Source: Opitutales bacterium (GTDB lineage Bacteria; Verrucomicrobiota; Verrucomicrobiia; Opitutales; UBA953). From it: a stretch of 64,000 nucleotides of DNA. The notes beneath the pieces were generated by a model. The model saw only the letters and a program-made list of their open reading frames with translations, did no database searches and had not been told where the DNA came from. Numbering within the stretch: the first letter of the stretch is position 1; each line of letters starts with the position of its first letter. Position numbers and translations under genes: made by a program. The stretch covers positions 1 to 64,000 of the forward strand of contig JBBAUX010000010.1 of NCBI GenBank assembly GCA_040398005.1. Direction: 5' to 3'. Positions 47,056 to 53,408 of this stretch are shown in pieces.

Positions 47056-47703
47056 ATGCTTGCCACCGCCCGTCTTTTCCCCAAGGTTATGGGTCCTATG
47101 GCTAACGACGACGAAGAAGAAGAGAAAACCCCTGAGGCACCTAAAGAGGCTGCACCGAGCGCCCTGCTCATCCAGAAAAAATTTCTCGAACAACGTAAGC
47201 TCTTCCTCTGGGGCGCCGTCGATGATGCTTCGGCGAAAGACATCGTAGAAAAACTCCTGTATCTCGAAACTTCTGATCCCGGAAAAGAGATCACTTTTTA
47301 TATCAATACTCCCGGTGGTTCAATTACGGCAGGCATGGCGGTCTACGATACCATCCGCTTAATTACCTCACCCGTTAAAGTAGTCGTCACCGGTATGGCT
47401 GCGTCCATGGGATCTATCTTACTGCAAGCGCCGAAACAAAAAGGGGGGCGCCTCGTCTTCCCTCACGCTCGGGTGATGATTCACCAACCACTCATCATGG
47501 GTCGCATTCAAGCCCCTGCCGTCGATATTCATATTCAAGCCCTCGAGATGGAACGTCTGCGCGCTGAGCTGAATGAAATTCTCGCGAAGGCCTCAGGACA
47601 AAAACTCGAGAAAGTGGTTAAAGATACTGATCGAGATTTTTACATGACCGCCGAAGAAGCCATTGAATATGGTTTGGCAGATGCGATAGTTAAAAAACTC
47701 TAA
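47056..47703 (+). CDS. clpP: ATP-dependent Clp protease proteolytic subunit
   Basis: INTPGGS, GMAASMG, MIHQP, DTDRDFYM.AEEA.EYG; start may be ATG 47089 or 47098. Confidence 0.94.
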   Translation: MLATARLFPKVMGPMANDDEEEEKTPEAPKEAAPSALLIQKKFLEQRKLFLWGAVDDASAKDIVEKLLYLETSDPGKEITFYINTPGGSITAGMAVYDTIRLITSPVKVVVTGMAASMGSILLQAPKQKGGRLVFPHARVMIHQPLIMGRIQAPAVDIHIQALEMERLRAELNEILAKASGQKLEKVVKDTDRDFYMTAEEAIEYGLADAIVKKL

Positions 47704-47714
47704 TCGACAGATAA

Positions 47715-48608
47715 ATGGGCATCGGCGATCGAGCCTATATGCGAAATACGATTCCCTTTCGCTCAGGGATATCGGCCAGCGCTATCGTGCTGTGTTTGAT
47801 TGTTGGATTCTATCTGGTTAATCTCGTCCAAGACTCGACGCGCATCGACTTAACCACTTGGGCAACCCTGCCTGAAGTTAATTCCGCCCCCTGGCAGTGG
47901 CTGACCTACGCCTTTATTCATTATAGTTTTTGGCACCTCTTGGGCAATGCACTGGGCCTTTGGTGGCTGGGAAAAGTTGTCGAAGATCACTACGGCGAAA
48001 AAGTATTTTACCTAACACTCAGCGGCGGAATTATTCTAGGGGCATTTTGCTGGTGGCTGACGGGCGTGAGTGGAGGGCGTTCAGAAAATCGTATCTTAAT
48101 AGGAATCTCCGGCGGCGTCTATGCACTCATGGTCGTGGCCCTACTGGATCGACTAGACCAAGTCATCACCTTGCTTCTTTTCTTTTTTATTCCGGTAAAT
48201 ATTAAAGCACGCTGGCTTCTGGCTATTCTCTTAGTCATCACGCTTTTAGGTTGGGGCTTTGCCGAATTACCTAGTCGACATACCTGGACAAGTTGGAAAC
48301 CCGCACTCGATTGGGCGATGGGCACGAGCCTCGCTCATTCCGCTCACCTCGGGGGATTTTTGTTTGGGTGGCTGATGTGGAAATATCAAAATCAAACAAA
48401 TCTGTCAGGTAGTGGCGCTCTATCTACAATGGGCACCCCTTTCGACGATGATCATTCAACAACTCTTCAGCCGAAAAATAGCCAAAAAATCAGCCAAGTC
48501 CGTGCGGAATTAGACGCCCTACTCGATAAAATTTCCGTCAAGGGTTTCGGCTCGCTCACGGAGTCCGAAAAACGCAGACTCGCCGAACTCAGCGATCAAT
48601 TGAAATAA
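47715..48608 (+). CDS. rhomboid family intramembrane serine protease
   Basis: WQWLTY.F.H, HL.GN, GISG (Ser), AHLGG (His); C-terminal LD.LLDKI...G..SL...EK domain. Confidence 0.9.
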   Translation: MGIGDRAYMRNTIPFRSGISASAIVLCLIVGFYLVNLVQDSTRIDLTTWATLPEVNSAPWQWLTYAFIHYSFWHLLGNALGLWWLGKVVEDHYGEKVFYLTLSGGIILGAFCWWLTGVSGGRSENRILIGISGGVYALMVVALLDRLDQVITLLLFFFIPVNIKARWLLAILLVITLLGWGFAELPSRHTWTSWKPALDWAMGTSLAHSAHLGGFLFGWLMWKYQNQTNLSGSGALSTMGTPFDDDHSTTLQPKNSQKISQVRAELDALLDKISVKGFGSLTESEKRRLAELSDQLK

Positions 48609-48614
48609 AATTCC

Positions 48615-50819
48615 ATGACCCTTCGCAACTTCCTACTTTTTCTTTTCGCTTTTCAATTAAGTTACGGTGAAACAGAGAAATTCACGACGACCGAGTTAAT
48701 GCAAAATGAAACACGGGCCACCGTCGCATTACTCGAGCGCCTCCATATCAGCAAAAAGCAGATGCCGGAAGTGGACACGAAAGAAGTGATCATTACCTAC
48801 TGCGAAAATTTAGACCCTGCGAAAATGTACTTCATTCAACCGGAAGTGGATGAATTTGTGAATCGTTACGGACGGAGCTTAGACTTGTATTTAACTCGCG
48901 GAAATCTCACCCCTGCTTTCGAAATCTATCAAGCATTCCGCAAACATGTTCAAGAACGCACGGCGAGTTCTATCCAATCTTTAGATCAAAAAATTGATTT
49001 AACTCAAGCGGGCTTCTTTCCTACTGACCGAAAGAAAGGCAACTGGCCGAGCGATAGTAAAGAAGCCGATGATTTATGGAGTCGCCGTTTAAGGTTGGAT
49101 ATTTTGGGTGAACTATTGGGCGATGACCGCACGGCCAATAACAACCGCAATGGGCCTAAACAAAAGCCCACCCACGAAACTAAGGCGCCCGAAATCACTC
49201 CCGAAAAAATCAAAGAAGCGGTCACCCGTTTAAAAAAGCGTTACGAAAAAATTAAAGTCTATTTAAATTTTGACCCCCAAGAAGTCGAGGAGCTGTTCCT
49301 CAATTCCTATTCTACCCAATACGATCCACACTCTATTTTCTTCTCTCAACAATCCCTTGAAGAGTTTGAAATCGGTATGCGTAATTCGCTCTGCGGAATC
49401 GGCGCCACGCTTAGCGACGAAGAAGGCTATTGTACGATCAAAGAAATCTTACCCGGTGGCCCTCTCTTTCTTTCCGACAAAGCTAAATCGGGAGATAAAA
49501 TTATTGCCGTCGGCCAAGGTAAAGACGGTGAGATGGATGATATCGTGGGGCTACGCCTCCAGAAAACGATTAATCGAATTCGCGGAAAACAAAATACTGT
49601 CGTTAGACTTTTAGTAGAATCAGGCGATGGCAGCGGTCGTAAAACTATCAGCATCGTGCGTGATCAAATTAAGTTATTCAATCAAATGGCCTCAGCTCGT
49701 TGCTTCGAAGGCCGAAATGGAAATCTCGGTGTCGTCGAACTGCCCGCCTTCTACGGAAAAAATCCTGATGGAACTGGCTCGAGTCCAACCAAGGATGTTG
49801 AGCAACTGATTGTTAAACTCAAAACCATGGGAATCCGGGCGCTGATTGTCGATTTACGTAAAAATGGCGGTGGCCTGCTCAATGAAGCCGTCGATTTATC
49901 CGGACTGTTTATTCCAACAGGCTCAATTTTGCAAGTGCGCGACAGCCAGGGACGCATTGATAATTACCGGGATGAGAATGCTAAAGTCGCTTGGGATGGA
50001 CCACTCATCGTTCTCACTTCAAAACTTTCCGCTTCAGCCTCGGAGATTTTCGCAGGTGCGCTGAAAGACCACCGCCGCGCCTTAGTCGTAGGTGATAACA
50101 CGACGCACGGCAAAGGATCAGTCCAAAACATCATTGAACTCAACCGCGTGTTTAAAGAGTTAGATATTAAATCAGCGCTTAAAGTGACCATCCAAAAATG
50201 GTACGCGCCCAGCGGTTCATCGATTCAACTCAAAGGCGTCCCAGCTGATATCATTGTACCTTCCGTATTCTCCGTTCTACCCGTAGCCGAGTCAGACTTA
50301 GACCATCCCCTGCCTTGGGATTCTATTCCGGCTTCACTGACCAAGCCTGATGAAGGTCCGTGGTTAAAGGCGCCGCTCTCCGATAATTTAGTTAATATTC
50401 TCAAAGAAGCATCCGCCAAACGCCAAGCTGAGCTTCCTGAATTTTCTACGCTCAATCACTCTATCGAATGGACGCGCAGTCGCACCAATCGCAAAGAGGT
50501 CTCCATCTCACTCGAACAACGTCGCCAAGAACGCACCGATGATCTCACCTTCCGCGAGCAAGTTCGTAATGAACTCAACCAATTCTCCAAAAATTCGTTC
50601 AAGGCAACGGATGTAAAATTAGATGCGGCGCTAGAACAGGAAAAGAAGGAAGGCGCTGAATACACGAATAAATCTAAGCACCAGTCGCGCATCCGCGAGC
50701 CACTCGAAGATGAGGATTGGCCCGACTACGATATTCAATTGCAAGAAGCCGTCCGCATCGCCGACGACTGGAGCAAGTTAGTAGCTGATAAAACTTCTGC
50801 TACTGCACCTACTCGTTAA
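48615..50819 (+). CDS. prc: carboxy-terminal processing protease (Prc/Tsp, S41A) with PDZ domain
   Basis: Signal peptide, YDPHS, GIGA PDZ, DLRKNGGGLL, SASASEIFA, GKGSVQ. Confidence 0.9.
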   Translation: MTLRNFLLFLFAFQLSYGETEKFTTTELMQNETRATVALLERLHISKKQMPEVDTKEVIITYCENLDPAKMYFIQPEVDEFVNRYGRSLDLYLTRGNLTPAFEIYQAFRKHVQERTASSIQSLDQKIDLTQAGFFPTDRKKGNWPSDSKEADDLWSRRLRLDILGELLGDDRTANNNRNGPKQKPTHETKAPEITPEKIKEAVTRLKKRYEKIKVYLNFDPQEVEELFLNSYSTQYDPHSIFFSQQSLEEFEIGMRNSLCGIGATLSDEEGYCTIKEILPGGPLFLSDKAKSGDKIIAVGQGKDGEMDDIVGLRLQKTINRIRGKQNTVVRLLVESGDGSGRKTISIVRDQIKLFNQMASARCFEGRNGNLGVVELPAFYGKNPDGTGSSPTKDVEQLIVKLKTMGIRALIVDLRKNGGGLLNEAVDLSGLFIPTGSILQVRDSQGRIDNYRDENAKVAWDGPLIVLTSKLSASASEIFAGALKDHRRALVVGDNTTHGKGSVQNIIELNRVFKELDIKSALKVTIQKWYAPSGSSIQLKGVPADIIVPSVFSVLPVAESDLDHPLPWDSIPASLTKPDEGPWLKAPLSDNLVNILKEASAKRQAELPEFSTLNHSIEWTRSRTNRKEVSISLEQRRQERTDDLTFREQVRNELNQFSKNSFKATDVKLDAALEQEKKEGAEYTNKSKHQSRIREPLEDEDWPDYDIQLQEAVRIADDWSKLVADKTSATAPTR

Positions 50820-52160
50820 TTAGCGAGCGCGGTACAGACCGTGGGGATCGTAAATCCACCAAGCGTCGAACGGATTAGATAATGAAGGGAGCTCGTAATA
50901 GGGCTTACCGCTTGCGTCGGCTTTAATCGAAACGCCGGAGTATTCCGATTGGGCCGACTTAGGTAATGCAGCCGTGGGCGCAGGCACTGGCGCAAGCATG
51001 TCGAGCACCGCCGTCTCTTCGATGCGGTCCACGACGACATCAATCCATTTAAGTTGTTTAGCTTTCTCACCAAAGGCCTGCCAGTCGCCCGTGGAGTCAT
51101 TCTCGTACATCTTCTTAACAAAGTCATCCAGCGAGATGCCCATCTTCTTTGCCACTGGAGTAGCCATGCGTTCAAACCATAACTTAGTGAACTCAATCTG
51201 CTCTTTCAACACAGTCATATTACCTTTGACGCTATTGGAAACCTGGTGATGTAGAATAATGGTATTAGGATAGCAGAAGGATTTTTCGGCGCACGTGGCA
51301 ATCACCGCAGTCATCGACGCGGCAAACCCCTTGACCACCACATAGACAGGGGCCTTCGACGCCGTCATCGCCTTCTGGATGAGGTATCCAGCGGAAACGG
51401 ATCCACCTGGGCTGTTATCGACCACAATGAAAATCGGAAACTCACTCGATTGATTATTATAAAAATTAATACGCTGACAAATGTAGTCGGCCAATTGATC
51501 GGTAACCGCACCATTAAAGGTGATACGACGATCGGTGATATATAAAACCCCATCTAGGTAGGGGTCTTTTAAATATTTCGGTTTAACATTGGCGGCAATT
51601 TTTCGGGCTTCGTCTTCTTTTTGAAAACGATTAATTTCATTGGTTAGGCGGGTCACCGTATTGCTCGCTTCTAATTGTAATTGTTTAGCATCCGCTTCGA
51701 GTTCACGAATTTTATTATTCTTTTCAATCAAGCGAGCATTGGAACGAGCTAGCTCTAGAGCGGACTGGCGCTCGAGTTTAGTGCGTTCCTCTTCTAAAGC
51801 AGAGGCTTCGGCTGAGGCTTTGGCCAAACGGAGTGAGCGCTCAGCGGACAGCTTCATCGCTTCGGAATTTAAGGGTGCGATCTCTTCCATGCGCTTGGCT
51901 TCTTGCAGAGCAAGTTGGGCATCAATTAAAGCCTTCTCCACGCGCATGCGGTCCACTTCCTTCATCTTCTCTTTCTGCTCAGGTGTTAAATCTTCGCGAG
52001 CGATGGCCGGACCCGGTGCTACCGTGGTAGGCAGCGAGGCGTTAGAAGAAGAAGGTGCATTTGCGGTGTCGCCATTCGTTGTCTTAACGGGCGTTGCTTG
52101 GGCAAAAAGAATAGGCCCAACCAACAAGCTGAAGATTTTCAAGGGAGTATGTTTAGACAT
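50820..52160 (-). CDS. exported coiled-coil + ClpP-family (S14-like) protease, paralog B
   Basis: ATG 52160 MSKHTPLKIFSLLVGPILFAQA signal peptide; long heptad-rich region; SPGGSV, GFAASM, ILHHQ, TGDW. Confidence 0.8.
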   Translation of the reverse strand: MSKHTPLKIFSLLVGPILFAQATPVKTTNGDTANAPSSSNASLPTTVAPGPAIAREDLTPEQKEKMKEVDRMRVEKALIDAQLALQEAKRMEEIAPLNSEAMKLSAERSLRLAKASAEASALEEERTKLERQSALELARSNARLIEKNNKIRELEADAKQLQLEASNTVTRLTNEINRFQKEDEARKIAANVKPKYLKDPYLDGVLYITDRRITFNGAVTDQLADYICQRINFYNNQSSEFPIFIVVDNSPGGSVSAGYLIQKAMTASKAPVYVVVKGFAASMTAVIATCAEKSFCYPNTIILHHQVSNSVKGNMTVLKEQIEFTKLWFERMATPVAKKMGISLDDFVKKMYENDSTGDWQAFGEKAKQLKWIDVVVDRIEETAVLDMLAPVPAPTAALPKSAQSEYSGVSIKADASGKPYYELPSLSNPFDAWWIYDPHGLYRAR

Positions 52161-52176
52161 GTTTTTGTTTTTAAAA

Positions 52177-53340
52177 TTAGCGGTAAATGAATTCGGTAGA
52201 AGGATCGTAAATCCACCAAATATCAAAAGGGGTTAAAGGATTTAAAGCGGTAGCGCCGTTGAGACCATCGGGTTTTATTACACCCAGCGCAGGAACGGCA
52301 GCAGTATTATTTACGCCTTCTTCAGTCATACGATCAACCACATGCGTAACCCATTTTAATTTAACCGCCTCGGTTCCTAAAACTTTCCAATCGCCCGTGG
52401 AAACGGCGGCGTACATTTGGGCGACAAATTCATCGACTGTAATATCCATTTTATTCGCCACTTTTACAAAAATTCTTTCGCACCAAATTTTGGTCCATTT
52501 TAATTGCTGCTCTAACTGGGTCTGATTTCCGGAAAGCGAAGTGCTCGCTTGGTGATGCAAGACAACCGTCTGCGGATAAACGTAGGAACGCTTAGCCATC
52601 GTGGTGATAATTGCGGCCATGGATGCGGCATAACCTTTAACGACCACGTAAACCGGAGCCTGCGATGACTCCATCGCTTGTAAGATTTGGTAACCCGACA
52701 TCACCGAGCCGCCCGGCGAACGTTCTATCACAATAAAGATGGGGGCTGTTTTATCTAAGGCATTATAAAAAGCGATGCGGTTACACACAAACTTTTCTAA
52801 AGTCTCATCGACTATTCCGTTAAAAGGAATTCTGCGGTCAGAAATACGCAAAACGCCTTCGGCAAGAGGTTCCAGAGGATACTCGATTTTCCCGCTCGTG
52901 GTTTCGACTACTTTTTTCTGCAGGCGGGCAATCTCCCCCAATTTTTCTAAGCGTGCGTATTCAACGGTGGCCTGCACATTGGCGAGTTTCACATCCGCTT
53001 CAAATTCTGCACGGCGGGCTTCTTTTTCGCCTGAAGCCAGGGAGGCCTTAATGTTGGCAATAGAAGTCTTCAAGTTGAGCTGGGATTTTTCGGCATCGTC
53101 CATCGCTCCGGCGGCATCGGTCTTGAGTTGGCGGATTCGACTTTCTACCTCGAGTTTTTTAATCTCTAGATCGGACGCTTGTTTGGCCTGGCGGCGTTGC
53201 GATTCTACTAAATCTAAACGTGTGCGGACAATCTCCGCTTCCACTTCGGTTTGAATCGTTTCCGGGGTTTTTTCGATACGACGAGGCTGGGCCTGCAATG
53301 CAGTTACAAAAAGCGTAAAAATAAGGGCCAAACGGGTCAT
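52177..53340 (-). CDS. exported coiled-coil + ClpP-family (S14-like) protease, paralog A
   Basis: MTRLALIFTLFVTALQA signal peptide; coiled coil; SPGGSV, GYAASM, VLHHQ, TGDW. Confidence 0.8.
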   Translation of the reverse strand: MTRLALIFTLFVTALQAQPRRIEKTPETIQTEVEAEIVRTRLDLVESQRRQAKQASDLEIKKLEVESRIRQLKTDAAGAMDDAEKSQLNLKTSIANIKASLASGEKEARRAEFEADVKLANVQATVEYARLEKLGEIARLQKKVVETTSGKIEYPLEPLAEGVLRISDRRIPFNGIVDETLEKFVCNRIAFYNALDKTAPIFIVIERSPGGSVMSGYQILQAMESSQAPVYVVVKGYAASMAAIITTMAKRSYVYPQTVVLHHQASTSLSGNQTQLEQQLKWTKIWCERIFVKVANKMDITVDEFVAQMYAAVSTGDWKVLGTEAVKLKWVTHVVDRMTEEGVNNTAAVPALGVIKPDGLNGATALNPLTPFDIWWIYDPSTEFIYR

Positions 53341-53408
53341 CGGAGGGTGACTCGTAAATTGTCAGATAAATGGTTCCCTTACACTCAAAAATTCGCAAAT
53401 CTTACGGC

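Follow-up and report, generated by a model that had tools for sequence, protein, structure and literature searches.

Two adjacent genes in a 64,000-nucleotide stretch of DNA from an Opitutales bacterium (contig JBBAUX010000010.1 of assembly GCA_040398005.1, positions 1 to 64,000; hereafter the window) are read, with moderate confidence, as encoding Sec-exported, catalytically competent members of an uncharacterised ClpP-fold clade that acts in the cell envelope without an AAA+ unfoldase or ATP. ClpP is a textbook protease that works only in the cytoplasm or the organelle matrix and needs an ATP-driven unfoldase. The genes were named A and B in their order on the minus strand, A being upstream. 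As paralogs they share 41% identity across about 390 residues (E 4e-90), and the pair is real and far beyond chance. An earlier note, made from the DNA letters, had described two co-oriented paralogs 16 nt apart; the open reading frames (ORFs), the coordinates and the identity agree with it. The observation of that note is confirmed, and its interpretation as an ATP-independent extracytoplasmic Clp system is partly supported.

Family membership and fold

Both proteins passed the Pfam CLP_protease profile (PF00574) with 68.2 bits for A and 79.2 bits for B, against a gathering score of 20.2, over profile positions 15-155/159 of 182. The equivalog and subfamily cut-offs of the NCBIfam ClpP models were all missed widely (TIGR00493, 39.8 for A and 56.2 for B against 308.6), and the same held for PRK00277 (52.8 and 67.3 against 249) and PRK12553 (61.9 and 74.6 against 228). 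Since PF00574 was passed and these cut-offs were missed, the profiles place A and B within the ClpP family but not among the housekeeping ClpP orthologs. The best sequence matches in the Protein Data Bank (PDB) were all ClpPs, down to E 5e-17. Profiles for SppA (TIGR00706, 21.6 and 23.5 against 155.45; TIGR00705, 26.7 against 311.45), for NfeD1b_N (PF25145, 28.6 and 21.8 bits, under the cut-off of 40) and for SDH-type proteins (PF01972, 19.8 and 17.9 against 31.3; NF047768, 23.2 and 19.3 against 250) all stayed below their cut-offs.

Structures were predicted with AlphaFold2 (AF2) as monomers, using a family alignment of 73 sequences as input. The mean predicted local distance difference test score (pLDDT) was 86.3 (A) and 83.1 (B). 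Foldseek matched the core of model A to solved ClpPs at E ~2e-13, with target-normalised template modelling scores of 0.75-0.89 and a root-mean-square deviation (rmsd) of 1.5-2.2 Å over ~170 residues. Comparison with ClpP by VIA gave Z 22.9 and an rmsd of 2.6 Å over 173 residues, residues 142-339 being placed onto ClpP residues 3-193. The long handle helix of ClpP is predicted at residues 273-297 of model A. The earlier note had assigned both proteins to the S14 ClpP relatives, not to the Ser-Lys type of SppA and NfeD, and had suggested comparing PF00574 with the profiles of the latter; profile scores, predicted fold and catalytic residues (see below) agree with that assignment.

Phage ClpP-like head-maturation proteases are often fused to coiled-coil scaffolds, and a domesticated prohead protease of this kind was considered as the origin of A and B. 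The Clp_rel_HeadMat model (NF045542) gave 57.9 and 55.3 bits, near the scores of the cellular ClpP models but below its cut-off of 120. None of 273 matching phage records covered at least 80% of B; the matches were to the core only, at ~30-34% identity. The helix-before-protease order, the signal peptide and the chromosomal synteny with housekeeping genes across Opitutae are also unlike a prophage, and this origin is hardly credible.

Catalytic residues

When A and B were aligned with the ClpP paralog encoded elsewhere in the window (47056..47703), the Ser of AASM, the His of HQ and the Asp of (G)D(W) fell in invariant columns. Alignment and a check of the codons (Table 1) agree with the earlier note that the Ser-His-Asp triad is intact in both proteins. 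As part of the joint reading given above, and with the same middling degree of confidence, A and B are taken to be catalytically competent S14-type serine peptidases.

Conservation was counted over 150 listed family representatives together with A and B (152 aligned rows). The Ser is present in 145 of 150 sequences and the His in 145 of 151. Of 147 sequences, 119 have Asp at the third triad position, 18 have Asn and 9 have Glu, and the Trp that follows it was kept in all 148. The oxyanion-hole motif SPGGS and the AASM motif were nearly invariant. In the related loci (an hmmalign count over 78 loci), Ser-His-Asp was found in all 56 A-type genes, in all 22 single-copy genes and in 53 of 56 B-type genes; the three B-type genes that lacked the full set were cut by contig ends, and all complete copies were intact. 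The sequence around the catalytic Asp, 'DxDRD' in ClpP, reads 'STGDW' here. The Asp/Arg pair of DxDRD has been described as a ring-ring sensor of Staphylococcus aureus ClpP, so a sensor of that type is not conserved here.

The intact Ser-His-Asp and the near-invariant SPGGS and AASM motifs suggest selection for catalysis. They make it improbable that A and B serve chiefly as structural or scaffolding proteins of the envelope, with the ClpP-like domain as an oligomerisation module and not an enzyme; what such a role would explain is the loss of both Ser and His in a few representatives, most of them lipoprotein-like. These representatives are P0135, P0166, P0209, P0234 and P0262; four of the five have lipoprotein-like N-termini, and no extra domain was found in any of the five. 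By analogy with ClpR, they may be inactive, membrane-anchoring partner subunits.

Export signals

Signal peptides were called with our own heuristic (basic n-region, hydrophobic core and AxA site). The N-terminus of A carries a single basic residue and an uncharged hydrophobic core of 14 residues, followed by an AxA site, with predicted cleavage at MTRLALIFTLFVTALQA|QP. In B, a basic n-region precedes the uncharged hydrophobic core and the AxA site, with predicted cleavage at MSKHTPLKIFSLLVGPILFAQA|TP. The hydrophobic cores (11-14 residues) are too short for a membrane span, and no lipobox was found in either N-terminus by the same heuristic. The Sec-type signal peptides that had been read from the letters are thus called by the heuristic too, and they recur family-wide: signal-peptide-like N-termini were found in 124 of 147 representatives starting with Met, 19 of these 124 with a lipobox-like motif, and many of the 23 failures look truncated or mis-started. 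Counted per gene in the related loci, 55 of 56 A-type and 51 of 56 B-type genes have such an N-terminus, as do 19 of 22 single-copy genes. At three loci (L062, L073 and L074) the B-type copy appears lipoprotein-like (..AGC) and the A-type copy soluble, an arrangement that would fit a single membrane-tethered complex.

These N-termini bear directly on whether A and B are ordinary cytoplasmic, ATP-dependent ClpP paralogs comparable to ClpP1P2, in which case the hydrophobic segments would not be export signals. Such paralogs would match PF00574, as A and B do, and would deserve the name 'ATP-dependent Clp protease proteolytic subunit', which, with 'hypothetical protein', is the only name given to the family in the databases; hetero-complexes of ClpP paralogs are also known (e.g. 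PDB 4ryf, 4u0g). They would not be expected to miss the NCBIfam ClpP cut-offs by a wide margin, to lack the N-terminal loops for gating and unfoldase contact, or to keep signal-peptide-like N-termini and lipoboxes across phyla. Two canonical ClpPs (267 and 211 bits) are already encoded in the same genome. The cytoplasmic explanation is therefore regarded as very improbable.

Helical stalk and aromatic tail

One long alpha-helix was predicted by AF2 in each protein (121 residues in A, 128 in B; residues 26-146 and 62-189), which would measure ~18-19 nm if continuous. The earlier note had described this region as a heptad-rich coiled coil. The long helix stands; the heptads do not, and 25-residue repeats take their place. 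Periodicity spectra of the stalks of 111 family members showed peaks at 5.0, 3.15 and 2.28 residues, which correspond to 25/5, 25/8 and 25/11, and no dominant 3.5-residue peak was found family-wide in these spectra. Written in rows of 25, the stalk is a repeat with alternating Leu-x-Leu-x-Leu stretches, and in some orthologs prolines lie exactly at the repeat boundaries. A classical two-stranded heptad pairing is not supported by these patterns; the stalk may instead be kinked, or may pack on more than one face.

Positions 1-14 of the PF00574 profile were unmatched in A and B, and residues 142-165 of model A (the end of the long helix and the linker) align to ClpP residues 2-24. In the models, the stalk thus replaces the axial, unfoldase-contacting N-terminal gate loops of ClpP, a point on which the interpretation in the earlier note is supported. 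Across the family, a median of 229 residues (range 31-407) precedes the DRR motif. The longer members have an extended stalk or linker only, and none of eight examined has an extra domain. Between A-type and B-type partners stalk lengths were hardly correlated (r = 0.13 across 53 pairs); they are nearly constant in Opitutae. Stalks or tails searched alone matched no Pfam family, with only sub-threshold noise at E<=5.

The tail adds 45-60 residues beyond the ClpP core and ends in ...PFDIWWIYDPSTEFIYR in A and ...PFDAWWIYDPHGLYRAR in B. The linker from core to tail was modelled with low confidence, and the aromatic beta-hairpin of the tail confidently. Strands were predicted at residues 364-366, 375-377 and 384-386 of A (pLDDT 83-91 in the last three 10-residue blocks) and at residues 412-414, 420-424 and 443-445 of B (pLDDT ~88). 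The C-terminal motif of the family is LPRLxPFDxY(F/Y)(L/I)YNPDxYYR; 140 of 145 sequences have its Asp. Two motifs reported earlier from the window, Y..(D/E)P...GVL.I(S/T)DRRI.FNG before the protease domain and PFD.WWIYDP near the C-terminus, are present and conserved across the family.

Distribution and conservation of the pair

When 1.84 billion representatives were searched with B by HMMER, 194 relatives were found at E<=1e-30; the number rose to 353 at E<=1e-10 and to 3320 at E<=1e-3, the last number including ordinary ClpPs. By sequence, the relatives of B form a discrete group that stands out from ordinary ClpPs. Lengths among the 150 listed members run from 116 to 694 aa; most have the same layout, and a few are fragments. 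Among 185,579 species, each scanned through one genome, 606 stretches matched and 554 were confirmed, with an estimate of ~810 for the whole collection. Matches in the ESM Atlas were the family's own clusters only, labelled Clp protease.

By record title, the carriers are mostly lake or river Opitutae/Opitutales metagenome-assembled genomes (MAGs) and Puniceicoccales. Further carriers are Phycisphaerae and other Planctomycetota, one Poribacteria MAG, and two Verrucomicrobiae isolate records, Luteolibacter sp. Populi (L072) and Haloferula sp. BvORR071 (L077); Pseudobdellovibrionaceae were added by a cluster look-up. Five MAG records (L015, L047, L066, L073 and L074) bear the names Akkermansia muciniphila, Klebsiella sp., Enterobacteriaceae, Sphaerochaetaceae or Bacteroidaceae in their titles. 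The loci themselves look Opitutae-like (52-56% identity to A together with a tandem pair) or Puniceicoccales-like, and the records are probably mislabelled or mis-binned.

An A-type gene followed in tandem by a B-type gene was found in 56 of the 78 related loci. The 22 single-gene loci belong to non-Opitutae lineages or lie on contigs that end beside the gene. In a FastTree tree the family stood apart from canonical ClpPs, A-type and B-type sequences formed separate clades, and B-type sequences grouped with the single-copy lineages; the tree was coarse (every third A-type, B-type and representative sequence, support values omitted, the outgroup ClpP_L001 left out). The separate clades suggest that the duplication is old, and both copies appear to have stayed catalytically intact.

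The earlier note had named no characterised example. In the full-text literature, with subscription journals outside coverage, no description of an exported, periplasmic, secreted or extracellular ClpP was found either, and the closest wording met there was 'ClpP-like protease'. The homolog and neighbourhood searches that the note had proposed recovered a discrete family without a conserved partner (see below).

Gene layout and genomic context

The coordinates of the pair are given in Table 1. The ATG at 52160 was taken as the start of gene B, in agreement with ortholog starts (MSKH... or the equivalent Met). A longer, TTG-initiated gene B that would overlap the end of gene A was disfavoured on the same ground. 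No terminator-like site was found in the 16-nt spacer. Given this short gap and the tandem order kept in most related loci, co-transcription of A and B is probable.

Table 1. Positions of the A/B gene pair and its parts in the window
Feature	Position	Strand	Basis
Gene A, upstream paralog, 387-aa ClpP-like protease with predicted export	52177..53340	-	ORF; PF00574; AF2
Gene A signal peptide, residues 1-17 MTRLALIFTLFVTALQA, predicted cleavage after LQA	53290..53340	-	Heuristic
Gene A helical stalk, residues 26-146, about five 25-residue repeats (predicted)	52903..53265	-	AF2, mostly pLDDT >90; periodicity
Gene A ClpP-fold core, residues 155-340 (predicted)	52321..52878	-	Foldseek, VIA
Gene A catalytic codons S240; H263; D317	52621-52623; 52552-52554; 52390-52392	-	Checked in sequence
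Gene A C-terminal tail, residues 341-387, ends in aromatic motif PFDIWWIYDPSTEFIYR	52180..52320	-	AF2; family motif
A-B spacer, 16 nt TTTTAAAAACAAAAAC, gene A TAA to gene B ATG	52161..52176	-	Sequence
Gene B, downstream paralog, 446-aa ClpP-like protease with predicted export	50820..52160	-	ORF; PF00574; AF2
Gene B signal peptide, residues 1-22 MSKHTPLKIFSLLVGPILFAQA, predicted cleavage after AQA	52095..52160	-	Heuristic
Gene B T/S/P/A-rich low-complexity linker, residues 23-61 (~39)	51978..52094	-	pLDDT <50, without secondary structure
Gene B helical stalk, residues 62-189 (predicted)	51594..51977	-	AF2; 25-residue repeat
Gene B ClpP-fold core, residues 197-385 (predicted)	51006..51572	-	PF00574 over 209-352; PDB ClpPs over 208-378
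Gene B catalytic codons S282; H305; D359	51315-51317; 51246-51248; 51084-51086	-	Checked in sequence
Gene B C-terminal tail, residues 386-446, ends in NPFDAWWIYDPHGLYRAR	50823..51005	-	AF2; family motif

The genome (1.44 Mb, 93.9% complete) has retained both genes. Gene B is convergent with prc, the end of the prc ORF (50819) abutting the gene B stop (50820). Gene A is divergent from psd, and the prc/psd arrangement recurs only in close relatives. With first-start ORF calls, 29 nt (53341-53369) separate the start of gene A (53340, minus strand) from that of psd (53370, plus strand). No sigma-70-like site was found in this gap; either psd starts at a Met further downstream (residue 14) or both promoters extend into coding sequence.

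On the plus strand beyond gene B lie a ClpP paralog with an acidic N-terminal extension (47056-47703), directly 3' of it a rhomboid protease with a C-terminal DUF6576 (47715-48608), and directly after that the Prc/Tsp tail-specific protease (48615-50819). Four to five protease genes are thus found within 6.3 kb. The ClpP-rhomboid adjacency is also present at L008 and L055. The possibility that A and B stand in for a missing HtrA/DegP was rejected, as a Trypsin_2 gene and Prc are present in the genome.

Neighbourhoods were scanned at 16 loci (93 neighbouring ORFs). No AAA+ gene and no family-wide conserved partner was found near the pair among them, which agrees with the linkage part of the ATPase-free reading in the earlier note. 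Upstream Psd and downstream Prc, rhomboid and ClpP were shared by the close relatives L008 and L055 only, and Psd also by L053. In Planctomycetota and Verrucomicrobiae the neighbours are different. In other Opitutae (L020, L033, L036, L051 and L053) a conserved two-gene unit lies ~1.4-5 kb downstream of the B-type gene. Its first gene encodes a cytochrome-c (CBB3-type) and PA14 protein of ~525-558 aa. The second product (~500 aa) has a DUF7133 domain in L020, L051 and L053 and no Pfam match in L033 and L036.

DNA runs that hold the stretch come from aquatic, freshwater or lake metagenomes, or are unlabelled. One RNA library (X18) holds a 172-nt contig identical to gene A over 52716-52887, which records presence in the library and is not proof of transcription. 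Contigs of relatives (~93% identity) over parts of A and B were found in RNA libraries X19 and X20, and none in X22. These contigs are weak hints of expression.

Proposed mode of action and alternatives

After export, each mature protein would consist of a stalk of ~120-130 residues, a complete ClpP core with its handle helix and an aromatic beta-hairpin tail. The cores would form ClpP-like rings through the retained ring and handle surfaces, and the co-transcribed paralogs would co-assemble. Because they replace the pore-lining N-terminus, the stalks would emerge around the axial entrance, where they could bundle and serve for spacing or tethering, and perhaps for capturing substrates. The enzyme would then degrade peptides or unfolded proteins of the envelope without ATP. 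What we infer in this scheme is export itself, the oligomeric state, the formation of heteromers, independence from ATP, the substrates and what stalk and tail do.

In their fold over the whole core and handle, their triad positions and their PGG/AASM motifs, A and B are like ClpP (MEROPS S14, PF00574). Unlike ClpP, they have a signal peptide (or, in the family, a lipobox), a stalk instead of gate loops and an aromatic tail, they score far below the NCBIfam ClpP cut-offs, and they have no linked AAA+ gene. Their predicted location is extracytoplasmic and not the cytoplasm or organellar matrix with a Clp ATPase. As in ClpP1P2 of Listeria and Mycobacterium, two ClpP-type paralogs are encoded together, and the Asp-to-Asn substitution seen at the third triad position in 18 of 147 family members is also that of Listeria ClpP1. 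ClpP1P2 is, in contrast, cytoplasmic and AAA+-dependent, whereas A and B are predicted to be exported and would co-assemble there. A ClpP-fold peptidase at or beyond the cytoplasmic membrane without ATP, as proposed for A and B, has a parallel in SppA (S49) and NfeD/STOPP. SppA and NfeD use Ser-Lys dyads. The A/B family differs from them in keeping the triad His (145/151), in reaching only 16-29 bits with the SppA, NfeD1b_N and SDH profiles, and in having neither a polytopic membrane anchor nor an OB-fold domain.

Several points weigh against the reading of A and B as an envelope Clp system independent of ATP. The genome encodes an HtrA-type protease (the Trypsin_2 gene) as well as Prc, and shows no obvious gap in envelope proteolysis. 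The family is patchy in the phylum (5/201 sampled genomes, G000 included, all at least 90% complete), which argues against a core envelope function. The third triad position is Asn or Glu in 27/147 members, and both Ser and His are lost in 5/150 representatives. The export call comes from our own heuristic, and the triad geometry and the tail docking site are presumed ones. Ring formation is likewise argued from likeness to ClpP, the AF2 models being monomers. Finally, with no dominant 3.5-residue periodicity family-wide and with boundary prolines in some orthologs, the stalk may consist of segments and be neither a single rod nor a classical coiled coil.

Among the alternatives, the strongest is a tethered, stalked processing protease, in which a dimeric or trimeric rod or a segmented bundle would tether or space one to three ClpP-fold domains from the membrane or wall. 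Particular envelope substrates would be clipped at specific sites, as NfeD does with stomatin and SppA with signal peptides, without a closed barrel. The lipobox variants and the P/A/T-rich linkers after the signal peptide suit such tethering, as does a stalk that varies widely in length and is not accompanied by an extra domain in longer members; the extracytoplasmic ClpP-fold relatives SppA and NfeD are themselves membrane-associated processing enzymes. It is harder to reconcile with a complete ClpP core that has kept the ring-stacking handle helix, with a Ser-His-Asp triad as in chambered ClpPs, with SppA, NfeD and SDH profile scores under the cut-offs, and with the lack of a lipobox in A and B of the window. 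This rival is given a modest chance of being right.

A bolder form of the favoured ATP-independent scheme would make A and B a self-contained extracytoplasmic Clp machine, with a mixed A/B ring or double ring, a pore held by the tails and a barrel of stalks. The C-terminus of ClpP lies near the apical hydrophobic pockets, and an aromatic tail could thus fill them as a built-in equivalent of the IGF loop or of acyldepsipeptide (ADEP) antibiotics. The hairpin (PFDxWWIYDP...YR) would dock, in cis or on a neighbour, into the ClpX IGF-loop/ADEP pockets and hold the pore open. The N-terminal helices, hydrophobic on more than one face, would bundle over the pore into a multi-helix stalk or alpha-helical barrel of ~19 nm, which would trap unfolded proteins of the envelope or anchor the chamber across the periplasm. 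This elaborated machine is rather unlikely.

Implications

Gating of ClpP by its N-terminal loops and by ligands of the hydrophobic pockets is the basis of ADEP-type antibiotics. If the reading of A and B as exported, ATP-independent proteases is true, the family would show how a chambered ClpP can be opened and fed without ATP, and it would add a new class beside the envelope proteases HtrA/DegP, Prc/Tsp and SppA. The database label that names these proteins as subunits of an ATP-dependent protease is probably wrong except for the fold. Within the literature covered, the combination of an S14 triad, conserved paralog pairs, an aromatic tail and a stalk of 25-residue repeats where the gate would be is undescribed. 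The family is open to experiment, as it is carried by the isolates Luteolibacter sp. Populi and Haloferula sp. BvORR071.

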